Virus record (IMG/VR): IMGVR_UViG_2541047425_000019 | DNA from: a virus | Taxonomy: Duplodnaviria; Heunggongvirae; Uroviricota; Caudoviricetes | DNA: 5,822 nt | Strand: one strand, 5' to 3' | Shown here: positions 1,851-5,822 of the stretch, piece after piece | How positions within the stretch are numbered: the stretch's first letter is position 1 | How the letters are laid out: every line of letters begins with the position of its first letter | Position numbers and translations under genes: made by a program | Notes under the pieces: generated by a model | Databases searched by the model: none | Told to the model about the DNA's origin: nothing | The model's input: only the letters and a program-made list of their open reading frames with translations

Positions 1851-2138
1851 TCAGATAGAGAAGGGAAATTGTCGCCGAGAATGTGTCACGCTTACAATCT
1901 CAATGCTTGAAGCAGCTACTCTGTACAGGATTATGTAGTTAGGGTGGGTCACGATCTCTCTCAATCCAGAAACCCGTTCGCTTGGTGGATATAAGTACGG
2001 ATGCTCAGATAGAGGTAATACCGATGTTTCAATGCGTATTTTTAGTCTACGTGCTGCCGGTGGGTTCTCCTTGGCGATGTAAGTTATGATCTGGCGCAAA
2101 TCATCGCGAGCAGACGGTAGCCATAAAATGGGTAACAT
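1851..2138 (-). CDS. parE: ParE/RelE-family type II toxin (95 aa)
   Basis: Track ORF; the sequence (…ARDDLRQIITYIAKENPPAARRLKIRIETSVLPLSEHPYLYPPSERVSGLREIVTHPNYIILYRVAASSIEIVSVTHSRRQF…) has the characteristic ParE pattern. Its start overlaps the antitoxin stop as TAATG (2136-2140), a classic translational coupling. Confidence 0.85.
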   Translation of the reverse strand: MLPILWLPSARDDLRQIITYIAKENPPAARRLKIRIETSVLPLSEHPYLYPPSERVSGLREIVTHPNYIILYRVAASSIEIVSVTHSRRQFPFSI

Positions 2139-2329
2139 TACTCGCTCTTGTTAGTTACAGCAATTTGAGCAATAAGATTTTCCATTTCAGCCATTACCTC
2201 GTCATGTGGAATTGCGGGGCGAGTGTCTGCAAGGCTTGACGTTACTTTAGTGCGCAACCATTCGTTGTAACTGTTTTCTTGTTCGGTAGTTTCGAATTCT
2301 GAAACTATCGGAGAAAGGGCTGTACCCAT
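2138..2329 (-). CDS. paaA: PaaA-like antitoxin (63 aa) partnered with ParE
   Basis: Track ORF; ATG (complement of 2327-2329) preceded by GGAG with a 7-nt spacer. The product (…SPIVSEFETTEQENSYNEWLRTKV…RPAIPHDEV…) resembles, from memory, the PaaA2 antitoxin of the E. coli O157 paaR2-paaA2-parE2 module. Small, acidic, immediately upstream of and coupled to parE. Confidence 0.75.
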   Translation of the reverse strand: MGTALSPIVSEFETTEQENSYNEWLRTKVTSSLADTRPAIPHDEVMAEMENLIAQIAVTNKSE

Positions 2330-2356: not shown

Positions 2357-2758
2357 TCACGCCCGGCGGCTTTTTTGTGCCGCCAGCCACCTAGCAATGG
2401 TTTCTTCCATTGATTTTTTCTTGTCTTTGATTTCTTGAAGCATTTTTTCTTGGTCTTCCTCAGGAAACGCACTAAAAGCTTGGAGCAGTTCGCGTTGGCG
2501 AGGACCAATTTTCATCGTGTCAGGGGTGAAAATTTGCTCACACTCTTCAGGAGGCAATAAAAACCAATGCAATGGATGCCCTGAAACCTCAACCAGTTTA
2601 TCCAAACTTGAGGCTTTAGGTGTAGCCTTACCGCTGACCCATTGTTGAACAGTTTGTTGTGTCACACCAATTCTACGGGCAAGCTCAGCCTGGCTCCATC
2701 CAGTTTCCTGAAGAAGCTTGCTGATTCTGTACATAGATACTTCTAGGGCGCTCATCAT
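2357..2758 (-). CDS. paaR: DicA/PaaR-like HTH (XRE-family) transcriptional repressor; likely the CI-type prophage repressor and TA regulator (133 aa)
   Basis: Track ORF; N-terminal HTH (…WSQAELARRIGVTQQTVQQWVSG…) and a C-terminal region resembling the DicA C-terminus (…RQRELLQAFSAFPEEDQEKMLQEI…). Transcribed divergently from the cro-like gene. No SD before the ATGATG start, and a TAAAAT -10-like hexamer sits 7 nt upstream, so the mRNA may be leaderless. The exact start (M1, M2 or M9) is uncertain. Confidence 0.8.
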   Translation of the reverse strand: MMSALEVSMYRISKLLQETGWSQAELARRIGVTQQTVQQWVSGKATPKASSLDKLVEVSGHPLHWFLLPPEECEQIFTPDTMKIGPRQRELLQAFSAFPEEDQEKMLQEIKDKKKSMEETIARWLAAQKSRRA

Positions 2759-2866: not shown

Positions 2867-3139
2867 ATGCTAGATAGCACTCGCGAAAAAATTAGGCAGA
2901 AATACACTCAGGCTGAAATAGGTCGTTATATGGGGGTCGCTCAACAGACTGTTTGGCAATGGTTTAGCTTTGGCGTTCCCCCAAAGCAGGTAATTCCGTT
3001 ATGCCAACTAATGAAGTGGGAAGTTACCCCGCATGAAATCCGCCCAGATATTTATCCTAACCCAACCGACGGTTTACCTGTTGGATGTAAGGTTAACACA
3101 TCAAATGCGCCGGAGTTGATTCATGAAAATCAAGCATGA
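2867..3139 (+). CDS. ydaS: Cro-like HTH regulator of the YdaS family (90 aa)
   Basis: Track ORF; GGAGG 6 nt upstream of the ATG; HTH (…IGRYMGVAQQTVWQW…) and the YdaS-family hallmark …VTPHEIRPDIYP…. First gene transcribed rightward from the operator region. Confidence 0.8.
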   Translation: MLDSTREKIRQKYTQAEIGRYMGVAQQTVWQWFSFGVPPKQVIPLCQLMKWEVTPHEIRPDIYPNPTDGLPVGCKVNTSNAPELIHENQA

Positions 3140-3548
3140 ACACATCCGCATGGCGATGAATGCCTGGGCGCATCCGGACGGCGAAAAAGTACCGGCTGCG
3201 AAAATTACCAAAGCGTATTTCGAGCTGGGAATGACGTTCCCGGAACTGTATGACGACAGCCATCCGGAAGCCATGGCTCGCAATACTCAGAAAATTTTCC
3301 GCTGGGTGGAGAAAGACACTCCTGATGCGGTTAAAAAAATTCAGGCGTTGTTACCAGCGATCGAAAAAGCGATGCCGCCTCCGCTGGTGGCCCGAATGCG
3401 CAGCCACAGTTCCGCTTATTTTCGGGAGTTGGTAGAGACGAAGGAACGGCTGGTGAAAGATATTGATGATTTCGTTGCATCAGCGATCGTTCTGTTCGAT
3501 CAGATGAATCGTGGTGGCCCGGCAGGAAACACTCTGGCTGTGCATTAA
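3123..3548 (+). CDS. ydaT: YdaT-like protein (141 aa), proposed functional analogue of CII in Rac/CP-933P-type prophages
   Basis: Track ORF; N-terminus MKIKHEHI… matches my recollection of YdaT proteins. It overlaps the end of the cro-like gene by 17 nt in another frame, typical of a coupled operon; GGAG lies 7 nt upstream. Confidence 0.75.
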   Translation: MKIKHEHIRMAMNAWAHPDGEKVPAAKITKAYFELGMTFPELYDDSHPEAMARNTQKIFRWVEKDTPDAVKKIQALLPAIEKAMPPPLVARMRSHSSAYFRELVETKERLVKDIDDFVASAIVLFDQMNRGGPAGNTLAVH

Positions 3549-3561
3549 TTGGGTAATAAAT

Positions 3562-4071
3562 ATGAGTAATGACAAAAAATTGACACTGAGCGTTTACGAA
3601 AACAGTCCGCACATCTGGCGTGGCGGTTTATCTGATGTGGAGCTGGCAGAGTGGTTGATACATAAAGCTAATGCGCTGCTCTGGCGTTTGTCAGCCAGAG
3701 AACAGCGCAAGGAAACCAGAATAAAGCTGGCTGATGCAGAAGCGTGTGCCGGGCTTATTGAGGATTATACAAATCTTGGTATTTCTTCAGCAGAGAGTGA
3801 TCCCATTCAGCCTCTGAGCAGGGAGTCAATCCAGCACGCTGGTTGTATGGCACATCTTGTAACTGCTCGTCAACATGAGGTGGGTATTGGATCACTTCCG
3901 GCGGGATATTCGCTGATTCCAGAGCTGGTTGAAGCAAGAAAATCAGTTCAGAAAAAGAGAGATGACGCACTTCAATTATTGAGAGAGCACTATGGCGCGA
4001 TACCAGAATGCGAACAGCGTCGATACCCTGAAGGTTATGAATGGATGCAGTCTCTTTTTGAAGTTCGCTAA
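3562..4071 (+). CDS. Hypothetical protein (169 aa), inserted between the CII analogue and the replication genes
   Basis: Track ORF 3511..4071 trimmed to the ATG at 3562; the track's GTG start at 3511 would overlap ydaT. First-codon-position G is about 36% by hand count, typical of real coding. The RBS is weak, and a long antisense ORF with a strong RBS overlaps it (see findings). Confidence 0.5.
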   Translation: MSNDKKLTLSVYENSPHIWRGGLSDVELAEWLIHKANALLWRLSAREQRKETRIKLADAEACAGLIEDYTNLGISSAESDPIQPLSRESIQHAGCMAHLVTARQHEVGIGSLPAGYSLIPELVEARKSVQKKRDDALQLLREHYGAIPECEQRRYPEGYEWMQSLFEVR

Positions 4072-4288
4072 TCAATATGTCGAGACGAAGGTATGTTTCG
4101 GCGCGCAGCCAGGCTCTGTAATCCGGGAGCATTTCGGGGCTGTTACACCAGCGGTTTGTTGCTGCAACATTTAATACATGAGCCTGATAAAGGCTTTTCA
4201 AAAAATACATGTCGAACCTCCTCTGGTTCTGTCGATTGGGAACCACAGATTATATCCGGAGGAAGGTTCGGCACCAGATGAGGTAGCC

Positions 4289-5380
4289 ATGCGTGATTAC
4301 GCAAAAGTTTCTCCGCGATTCTGGCTGGGAGAAACGGGGAGAGAACTTAGAAAGGCGGGTGCAGAAGCGCAAGTTGTTGCTTTTTACCTGATGACATCCC
4401 CTCACGCAAATATGCTGGGTTTGTATTACCTGCCAGTTTTATACCTTGCTCATGAAACCGGGCTTGGTCTGGAAGGGGCTTCAAAGGGGCTTAAAAGGGC
4501 TGTTGAAGCTGGTTTTTGTAGCTATGACCATGATGCAGAGATGGTCTGGGTCCATGAAATGGCAGCCTGGCAGGTTGGGGAAACGTTGAAGCCTGGCGAT
4601 AACCGTTGTGCAGGTGTCAGGAATGAGTATGCATCATTACCTGAAAACGCTTTTCTGTCAGTGTTTTACGACAGATATAAAACGGATTTCCATCTGGATG
4701 TGAGGCGGAATAATAGCCGAAATTCGGTAAGGGGCTTCGAAGGGGCTTTTAAGGGGCTTCGAAGCCAAGAACAGGAACAGGAGCAGGAGAAAGAACAGGA
4801 ACAGGACAAAAACACTATGGTTCATGGCAAAAAAAACACCACGAACCAGGCAGGGGATGTTCAGACCGTCAATCCTGGTCAGCCAGCAGGCACGACACCG
4901 GAAGCCGATTCGGGCGCTGTGCAGCAGGTGATGACCGCAGGGTCGGAGCAATCACACCAACTGCAGCAGCCTGAAGCCGATTCCGCCATTCAGCGGGAAG
5001 CCGATCGGGTAGTCCCGGAAAGCACCGGGCAGTCTGTGGGACGAGTGGATTATCCGGATGTGTTCGAACAGGTCTGGCGGGAATACCCGTTGCGTGCTGG
5101 GGCAAACCCGAAGAAATCCGCTTTCAGTGCCTGGAAGGCCAGATTGCGCGAGGGGGTGCCACCAGAGACCATGCTGGATGGTGTGAGGCGTTACGCGAGA
5201 TACCTGGCGGCGACCGGGAAAGCGGGAACGGAATTTGTTCAGCGAGCGACGACGTTTTTTGGGCCGGACCGGAATTTTGAAAACCCCTGGTTGCTCCCGG
5301 TAAGCGGCACGAACAACCAGCGTTGTGTGAATCATATTTCTGAACCGGATACCGAAATTCCGCCGGGATTCAGGGGGTGA
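4289..5380 (+). CDS. Phage replication initiation protein (O-like; N-terminal DNA-binding region, low-complexity EQ-repeat linker, C-terminal domain of the conserved phage type) (363 aa)
   Basis: Track ORF 4178..5380 trimmed to ATG 4289, which has GAGG 5 nt upstream. Sits directly upstream of the DnaC-like gene with a 6-nt gap. The C-terminal region (…YPDVFEQVWREYPLRAGANPKKSAFSAWKARLREG…) recalls the conserved C-terminus of phage replication proteins; the family assignment is from memory. Confidence 0.7.
   Translation: MRDYAKVSPRFWLGETGRELRKAGAEAQVVAFYLMTSPHANMLGLYYLPVLYLAHETGLGLEGASKGLKRAVEAGFCSYDHDAEMVWVHEMAAWQVGETLKPGDNRCAGVRNEYASLPENAFLSVFYDRYKTDFHLDVRRNNSRNSVRGFEGAFKGLRSQEQEQEQEKEQEQDKNTMVHGKKNTTNQAGDVQTVNPGQPAGTTPEADSGAVQQVMTAGSEQSHQLQQPEADSAIQREADRVVPESTGQSVGRVDYPDVFEQVWREYPLRAGANPKKSAFSAWKARLREGVPPETMLDGVRRYARYLAATGKAGTEFVQRATTFFGPDRNFENPWLLPVSGTNNQRCVNHISEPDTEIPPGFRG
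4726..4812. repeat. Iteron-like direct repeats and hexanucleotide repeat inside the O-like gene (candidate origin)
   Basis: AAGGGGCTT-type 9-mers repeated three times at 4728-4760, including palindromic GGCTTCGAAGCC (4755-4766), then (GAACAG)-like repeats at 4767-4806 and an A-rich tract. A related cluster AAGGGGCTTCAAAGGGGCTTAAAAGGGCT lies at 4473-4501. Confidence 0.4.
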
Positions 5381-5386
5381 TGTGGC

Positions 5387-5822
5387 ATGAAAAACATTGC
5401 GGCAGCCGGGGTTCTTGAACGTATTCGCAGACTTGCACCACAGGCGTCGGTTCCACCGTACCGGACGGTGGAGGAGTGGCGGGAATGGCAACTTGCTGAA
5501 GGACGAAAACGCAGCGAGGAGATTAACCGCCAGAATCACCAGTTGCGGGTGGAAAAAATCCTGAACCGTGCGGGCATCCAGCCGCTTCACAGGAAGTGCT
5601 CATTCGGGAACTACCGGGTGCAGAACGACGGTCAGCGCCATGCTCTGAGCCAGGCGAAATCCATTGCCGATGAATTGATGACCGGATGTACAAACTTCGT
5701 GTTCAGCGGTAAACCTGGTACCGGTAAAAATCACCTGGCAGCAGCGATTGGCAATCGGCTGATGGCGAAGGGGAGAAGCGTGATTATCGTCACCGTGTCC
5801 GATGTCATGAGCGTGTTGCATG
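5387..5822 (+). CDS. DnaC-like replicative helicase loader (AAA+ ATPase), 5' part; continues beyond the window
   Basis: Not in the ORF track because there is no stop in the window. Hand translation from ATG 5387: MKNIAAAGVLERIRRLAPQ…CSFGNYRVQNDGQRHALSQAK…FVFSGKPGTGKNHLAAAIGNRLMAKGRSVIIVTVSDVMSVLH; the Walker A motif GKPGTGKNHLA and overall strong resemblance to E. coli DnaC are clear. Confidence 0.85.
   Translation, partial: MKNIAAAGVLERIRRLAPQASVPPYRTVEEWREWQLAEGRKRSEEINRQNHQLRVEKILNRAGIQPLHRKCSFGNYRVQNDGQRHALSQAKSIADELMTGCTNFVFSGKPGTGKNHLAAAIGNRLMAKGRSVIIVTVSDVMSVLH

Follow-up and report, generated by a model that had tools for sequence, protein, structure and literature searches.

The DNA analysed here (the window; 5,822 nucleotides) comes from a Rac/lambdoid-type prophage of E. 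coli O157:H7 and represents its immunity and replication region. Within it, an O-like (initiator) gene contains two clusters of a 9-bp repeat followed by a tandem hexamer array, and this segment (4473-4809) is probably a lambda-style replication origin that lies inside the gene of its own initiator, a member of an unannotated family. The setting of the O-like gene in a replication module, with a DnaC-like gene next to it, supports this assignment. Selection acts on the repeats as DNA, and they do not simply follow from the protein sequence. Hundreds of related phage genes, in widely differing bacteria, retain the same 9-base site, and neither the 9-mer nor the hexamer array depends for its DNA-level conservation on reading frame, strand or base composition. 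An iteron origin inside an initiator gene is a textbook kind of element. What was not found in the literature is this family, its site, the split layout in two clusters, the overlap of a cluster with the DNA-binding helix, a hexamer array instead of an AT-rich tract, and one 9-mer that is invariant across very different genomes. The features concerned are as follows (aa, amino acids; nt, nucleotides):

4289-5380 (+): O-like (initiator) gene, 363 aa; N-terminal winged helix (aa ~10-135), disordered linker (aa ~146-255) and helical C-terminal domain
4473-4503 (+): iteron cluster 1; AAGGGGCTT at 4473 and 4484, and a degenerate copy, AAAGGGCTG, at 4494-4502
4729-4759 (+): iteron cluster 2; three perfect copies of AAGGGGCTT with a spacing of 11 nt; lies 256 nt downstream from cluster 1
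4762-4809 (+): anchor AAGCCA and about seven RGARCA hexamers, coding for SQEQEQEQEKEQEQD; candidate unwinding or loading element
4818-4848 (no strand): imperfect inverted repeat with a 12-pair stem and an A8/T8 run in the loop; dG -16.6, z -3.8

Conservation of the 9-bp repeats

The first-pass annotation had noted two clusters of iteron-like repeats inside the O-like gene, and these are readily recovered. Exact AAGGGGCTT occurs five times, always on the plus strand (4473-4481, 4484-4492, 4729-4737, 4740-4748, and 4751-4759); all five copies are inside the O-like gene and there is no other in the 5822 bases, against a chance expectation of 0.06 on average and 1 at most in 200 shuffles. With Tandem Repeats Finder (TRF), the period is 11 in each of the two clusters. 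The placement of the repeats in a linker between domains holds for cluster 2, which codes for aa 147-157 at the start of the disordered linker, and for the hexamers, but not for cluster 1, which codes for aa 62-71 (EGASKGLKRA) in the N-terminal half of winged-helix alpha3. Similarly, the palindromic cores described for cluster 2 are present (CTTCGAAG, at 4735-4742 and 4757-4764), but they result solely from the CG spacer between two sites, and this spacer varies among relatives.

An 11-nt period is no whole number of codons, and successive copies thus fall in three reading frames. In cluster 1 these are gaA GGG GCT Tca, AAG GGG CTT and aaA AGG GCT, and the peptides by frame are EGAS, KGL and KRA, and RGF, EGAF and KGL. 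The repeated peptide segments and the linker that had been described earlier are indeed encoded by the repeats (GLEGASKGLKRA, RGFEGAFKGLRS, and QEQEQEQEKEQEQ). However, the three frames are forced by the 11-nt period, and the element is therefore not a peptide repeat.

Relatives of the N-terminal domain were compared as 80 diverged loci, one genome per species, from Gamma- and Betaproteobacteria (41-79% amino-acid identity; gene GC content 0.37-0.67). The same two positions hold the same 9-mer in these relatives. Exact copies on either strand have a density of 26.9/kb in the cluster-1 zone and 11.1/kb in the cluster-2 zone, compared with 0.015/kb in the remaining 474 kb, and 157 of 174 neighbouring site pairs have 11-nt spacing. 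Regardless of GC content, the codons of cluster 1 are fixed as GAA GGG GCT TCN AAG GGG CTT. For instance, the two Gly codons are GGG in 74/75 and 66/76 relatives (20% elsewhere in the same genes), the Ala codon is GCT in 61/77 (17% elsewhere), the Leu codon is CTT in 71/79 (13% elsewhere), and the Glu codon is GAA in 72/72. These third positions are the most constrained among the degenerate codons of the N-domain, while the TCN codon that spans the 2-nt spacer is unconstrained, and the AAG and CTT flanks are as strongly kept as the G-run.

Cluster 2 has two to three copies per relative and may face either way: it is inverted (AAGCCCCTT) in 55 of the 80, mixed in 13, and direct in 10. Inversion changes the encoded peptide from EGASKGL to EAPSKPL and leaves the DNA site and its phase unchanged. 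Taken together, the frozen synonymous sites, the orientation flips and the use of three frames form a pattern that only selection on DNA explains. With the frame-independent array described below, they support the earlier suggestion that DNA elements of the origin are superimposed on the initiator coding sequence.

These data also bear on whether the repeats matter only at the level of protein or RNA, as a peptide motif or through long-range mRNA pairing of the two clusters. EGASKGL-type peptides do recur, and the clusters are complementary in relatives with an inverted cluster 2, yet this explanation is scarcely credible. A peptide repeat is ruled out by the frame, strand and codon data, in that the peptide changes on a flip while the DNA is kept and the synonymous sites are fixed. 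Pairing is likewise ruled out for the window, where both clusters are direct, as they are in the 10 direct relatives. Additionally, Rfam has no RNA family at the repeat region, its sole match in the window being DicF at 127-178.

The hexamer array and the adjoining hairpin

The GAACAG-type hexanucleotide repeat reported after the second cluster was found by TRF as 6.3 copies of GAACAG at 4769-4806. In the register of the family, it begins with the anchor AAGCCA at 4762-4767 and continues with RGARCA units at 4768-4809. The anchor is in 11-nt phase with the last iteron, and an AAGCCA follows the iteron in 131 loci. Hexamer positions 2, 3, 5 and 6 are invariant (G, A, C, and A), and positions 1 and 4 are purines. 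Arrays contain from 1 to at least 16 units (median 6). A tandem repeat of 6, 12 or 18 nt directly after the last site is present in 80% of 174 loci, as opposed to 5% of random segments, and across these 174 loci the intragenic pair of clusters is kept together with the adjoining array. The close E. coli variants (L002-L004) differ only by the loss of one hexamer unit and by a few point changes, and are too close to the window to be informative.

In 115 loci the array is translated as S-Q-(E-Q)n. In three others (L048, L068, and L080) the same array DNA codes for (GA)n, (RA)n or (GT)n and is still in frame with the N-domain, a shift that is due to 12-nt spacing. Since the array is kept in other frames, it is conserved at the DNA level as well.

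The right-hand end of the array has a further property. Phage matches to the O-like gene start only at 4809, which is the end of the array, and the C-domains downstream of it are highly diverse among relatives. The array, and perhaps the iterons, could thus persist mainly as a recombination joint for the exchange of N- and C-terminal modules and have no role in initiation, for which the position of this mosaic boundary and the diversity beyond it both speak. This is nonetheless very improbable as a full account, as it leaves unexplained the 11-nt phasing, the frozen synonymous sites of cluster 1 within a folded domain, and the orientation flips; a joint is also compatible with an origin rather than an alternative to one.

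On the right, the array adjoins the inverted repeat at 4818-4848, whose minus strand resembles an intrinsic terminator and is followed by UAGUGUUUUU. The hairpin is kept in four relatives, and its G-U pairs work on the minus strand only. It could end an antisense transcript or be an origin-flanking palindrome, as in lambda. The hairpin and the A-rich tract that it contains belong to a C-terminal module common to phages with other iterons.

The initiator family and the function of the repeats

If the segment is an origin, it may work in the following way. The N-terminal winged helix of the 363-aa protein would bind a 9-bp quasi-palindrome, AAG-SSS-CTT (AAG-GGG-CTT in the window), and with sites every 11 bp, about one helical turn, the bound proteins would lie on one face of the DNA. 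The two clusters, of two to three sites each and 256 bp apart, may be joined through a loop or wrapped together in a single nucleoprotein complex. The (RGARCA)n array abutting cluster 2 would then be the place of duplex opening or helicase loading, and the C-terminal domain would recruit the neighbouring DnaC-type loader and the host DnaB. Binding of the protein to these sites, the start of replication at this place and the identity of the melting segment are all inferred.

The protein itself is poorly covered by existing annotation. RefSeq names it "hypothetical protein" or "DNA-binding protein", PHROG 1701 labels it "DnaD-like helicase loader", and the family is without a curated model. No Pfam family matches the whole protein (E<=0.01) or the N-domain (aa 1-160; E<=1), NCBIfam has no model for the protein, and the Pfam family Phage_rep_org_N does not match it. 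Although the first-pass annotation called the protein O-like, it is not a sequence relative of lambda O, as it has no match to the Pfam lambda O family, Phage_rep_O. An AlphaFold2 model built on 74 sequences has a predicted local distance difference test score (pLDDT) >90 for aa 11-140, with alpha1 at 25-36, a beta strand at 45-47, alpha2 at 50-57, alpha3 at 61-73, beta strands at 77-80 and 85-88, and then three helices; disorder sets in with the linker at aa 146, and confidence in the modelled C-domain is lower. On this model, the N-domain is predicted with high confidence to be a winged helix (alpha1-beta1-alpha2-alpha3-beta2-beta3), with confident structural matches.

A relationship to DnaT was considered and rejected, because only the last 24 residues match, and far below the family threshold (NF002770, 17.8 bits against a cut-off of 201; PDB DnaT chains, E 0.02-0.07). 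This weak likeness to the DnaT C-terminus explains why some GenBank records name relatives "primosomal protein I". Separately, three CCGGAAGCCGATTC-like sequences (4898-4911, 4970-4983, and 4994-5007; peptides PEADS, PEADS, and READR) are present in the variable linker of the C-terminal module, and a fragment is also duplicated just upstream of the initiator gene of POCJ13.

Several observations weigh against the segment being an origin. Literature searches on the motif in both orientations, on POCJ13, and on iterons of O157 prophages or of non-lambdoid Shiga toxin (Stx) phages found no description of it. The nearest-neighbour profile of duplex stability has no clear minimum adjoining the iterons and no clear AT-rich unwinding element: the hexamer array is of average stability, the least stable stretch of the O-like gene is between the clusters (4650-4690), and the 41 bp at 4799-4839 are at the 81st percentile of instability in the window. 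The A-rich stretch pointed out earlier is therefore real as an A8 run (4829-4836) but is not convincing as an AT-rich unwinding region, its instability being merely moderate and the run lying within the loop (4830-4836) of the hairpin. Third positions within the hexamers vary as they do in ordinary codons, and from this drift alone the DNA-level conservation of the array would not have been apparent. The co-variation of N-domain and iteron type, discussed below, comes from one comparison. Additionally, if the prophage should be Sakai Sp4, then its DNA is reported to be amplified after induction only passively, via the neighbouring Sp5 (PMC2669165), and the copy in the window may not be self-firing after induction. 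In Sp4, the O and DnaC-type genes were considered intact, and the repressor is without an SOS-cleavable domain (PMC2669165).

A last point of this kind is that some relatives have extra 9-mers within 60 nt upstream of the start codon (11 exact copies, 2.3/kb). They overlap the ribosome-binding site, occur in Acinetobacter phages and in a small number of other relatives, and fit the main alternative, in which the 9-mers bind the encoded protein but serve only as autoregulatory operators or roadblocks that limit initiator expression, with the origin elsewhere. Iteron initiators commonly autoregulate. However, the window has no AAGGGGCTT copy upstream of its O-like gene, and no second repeat system is visible in the 5.8-kb replication region. 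What is invariant is instead two intragenic clusters and an adjoining array, which is the anatomy of known intragenic phage origins, and autoregulation as the sole function is accordingly judged unlikely.

The initiator gene of Acinetobacter phage YMC/09/02/B1251 (L087; 2462-2482 and 2501-3394) has a further two sites, both inverted, across its ribosome-binding site. In GenBank, the start of this gene is placed internally (locus position 2768), so that the winged-helix domain and cluster 1 are left unannotated.

It is also conceivable that the motif is read by a host factor or through DNA structure, such as a G-quadruplex of the phased G-runs or curved DNA, and not by a phage protein. In support of this, the same 9-mer is present at 29-67% GC and in families that profile comparison cannot link, and the GGGG runs are 7 nt apart, inside the limits for quadruplex loops. 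On the other hand, there are merely two to three G-runs per cluster, the AAG/CTT flanks are conserved equally, and DnaA boxes are absent near the repeats and below chance in number in the window. A natural control for the specificity of the iterons appears to be provided by E. coli phage vB_EcoS-689R5, which has the C-domain in common with the window (92% nucleotide identity from window position 4809) and a different N-domain. Its "DNA replication protein O" gene (L085) has GTCACG four times at 1154-1192 and five times at 1414-1462, at 10-nt spacing and 260 nt apart, and a 12-nt tandem repeat (ACAGATAAAGAT, three copies) follows the second cluster. By its sequence, this gene appears to hold its own candidate origin, one that is apparently undescribed. 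Host, C-domain and layout are the same as for the window, whereas the N-domain and the repeat differ, which argues that the repeat type tracks the N-domain and that this domain, rather than a host factor, sets the site. A host factor or DNA structure as the reader of the motif is thus quite improbable.

The same motif was found more widely when IMG/VR was scanned for three phased copies of the 9-mer, which returned 100 viral contigs. In 66 of these, the array is in a relative detectable by BLAST, mostly at cluster 2 and in either orientation. Most of the other 34 have it in low-GC phage genes, for which tblastn and hhalign matched nothing to the N-domain of the window beyond the iteron-encoded peptide. 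In these genes, too, there are two clusters, separated by about 190 nt, after which come (GGTATAGGTAAT)n, (AAGGAA)n or other repeats, and the low-GC family has the same winged-helix topology in structure predictions, with cluster 1 again on alpha3. Its link to the window is through this predicted topology only, and it, too, counts against a host factor. In another subfamily, cluster 1 is near the N-terminus instead; the coincidence with alpha3 is therefore common but not universal. Matches in a plasmid collection were set aside, since they are not autonomous replicons but wrongly assigned pieces of chromosome or prophage. Six IMG/VR contigs also have at least three phased AAGGGGCTT copies outside any recognisable initiator gene (L136, 5248-5278, at the start of a 716-aa open reading frame (ORF); L165, 834-875; L170, 3579-3609; L126; L176; and L179), where they could be second origins, remnants or chance occurrences.

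From the identical 9-mer in genes of 29% to 67% GC, a broader proposal may be put forward, more doubtful than the origin itself: that phage initiators of a very large, unannotated superfamily, which includes families that cannot be linked by sequence, use one invariant 9-bp iteron, AAGGGGCTT, phased at 11 bp. The site would perhaps be frozen because the codons of alpha3, the recognition helix that reads it, also carry cluster 1, such that neither partner could drift alone, and the hexamer array would be a new unwinding or loading element that replaces the AT-rich region.

An intragenic origin of this type has several implications. It offers a sequence-level way to locate origins where the initiator is called "hypothetical" or "DNA-binding protein", for instance in Stx1 phages (POCJ13 and 75/02), in O157 prophages, and in Acinetobacter, Klebsiella and Burkholderiales prophages. 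It is a clean natural case of DNA-level selection within a coding sequence, with one site in three frames and on both strands. A single site that serves initiators whose hosts differ widely in base composition would be a candidate for broad-host-range mini-replicons, and it suggests phage-encoded-resistance decoys that titrate the initiator. Finally, the frame-independent hexamer array raises the question of how the duplex opens at an origin without an AT-rich region.

Prophage setting and comparison with known systems

The segment 4178-4830 is 100% identical to many O157 chromosomes and is present in 477 of 5426 complete E. coli genomes. The other genes of the immunity and replication region are, in order:

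2357-2758 (-): short helix-turn-helix repressor gene
2867-3139: YdaS/Cro-like gene
3123-3548: YdaT/cII-like gene
between the YdaT/cII-like gene and the O-like gene: unknown gene
5387-5822 (+): DnaC/IstB-type helicase loader gene, cut by the window end; the presumed partner of the initiator

The loader gene matches Pfam IstB_IS21 (E 2.8e-8) and PHROG 50, "DnaC-like helicase loader" (E 9e-41), and is 747 nt when complete, as it is in the O157:H7 strain PV15-279 (L001). Among 75 relatives, the initiator gene is directly followed by a gene for a DnaB helicase (23 relatives), a DnaC/IstB loader (19) or lambda P (3), which together make ~45/75. The prophage of PV15-279 is otherwise identical, but downstream of the window (L001, 8764-11627) an IS66-family element, ISEc8, splits a DUF977 gene that is two genes downstream of the DnaC-like gene.

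At the other end of the window, DicF antisense RNA has a full-length match at 127-178 on the minus strand (Rfam RF00039, 76.9 bits, E 2.8e-16), and in the identical O157 locus the annotation places dicB upstream of the immunity region. A RelE/ParE-RelB toxin-antitoxin pair, assigned from the annotation of the same locus, is encoded at 1851-2138 (-) and 2138-2329 (-), with the dicB-side genes on one side and the repressor on the other. An overlap of two long ORFs on opposite strands was also noted, both with a family-model match: 3562-4071 (+) to PHROG 8304 (E 4e-120), and 3755-4210 (-), the one that RefSeq annotates, to the NCBIfam "ECs1072 family phage-associated protein" (E 2e-30). One of the two is probably a shadow ORF.

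Of the known systems, ori-lambda, as in lambda and Stx phages with their O-some, lies inside gene O (PMC7466680). As with the putative origin in the window, it is in the middle of the initiator gene and has direct repeats, which in lambda are bound by the N-terminal part of the initiator (PMC7466680). Downstream of the repeats lambda has an unwinding region, where the window has a candidate element. Further points of likeness are a helicase loader gene next to the initiator gene and the position of the unit downstream of cro/cII-type genes. In contrast, lambda O has no sequence similarity to the window protein. Lambda has iterons of ~19 bp in one block of 4-6, whereas the window has 9-bp sites in 11-bp phase and in two clusters 256 bp apart, the first of them inside the folded DNA-binding domain. 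Where lambda has a clear AT-rich tract, the window has a hexamer microsatellite of 50% GC, and its loader is DnaC-type rather than P-type.

In the Bacillus phage SPP1, oriL likewise lies inside an initiator gene, gene 38 (PMC6316719). SPP1 has the replisome organizer gp38, the loader gp39 and the DnaB-type helicase gp40; unlike the window, it also has an AT-rich DNA unwinding element (DUE) and a second origin copy, oriR, elsewhere in its genome. No sequence relationship was detected. Iteron plasmids of the RepA or pi type also have winged-helix initiators; their iterons are intergenic and ~17-22 bp long, and their initiators have two winged-helix domains, compared with one evident in the model of the window protein. 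Phage vB_EcoS-689R5, in spite of its other N-domain and other repeats, has the same succession of a repeat cluster, a second cluster after ~260 nt, a short tandem repeat and the common C-domain.

For the hexamer array, a possible parallel is the DnaA-trios, which Richardson et al. in 2016 reportedly described as adjoining the DnaA boxes of bacterial oriC. There, too, a short periodic motif abuts the double-strand sites of the initiator where opening would start, and RGA-RCA may be read as a 3-nt period. The likeness is one of analogy only, as the sequence is different and the window initiator is not an AAA+ protein. Overall, the putative origin in the window appears to match ori-lambda and SPP1 oriL in its logic rather than in sequence or detail.

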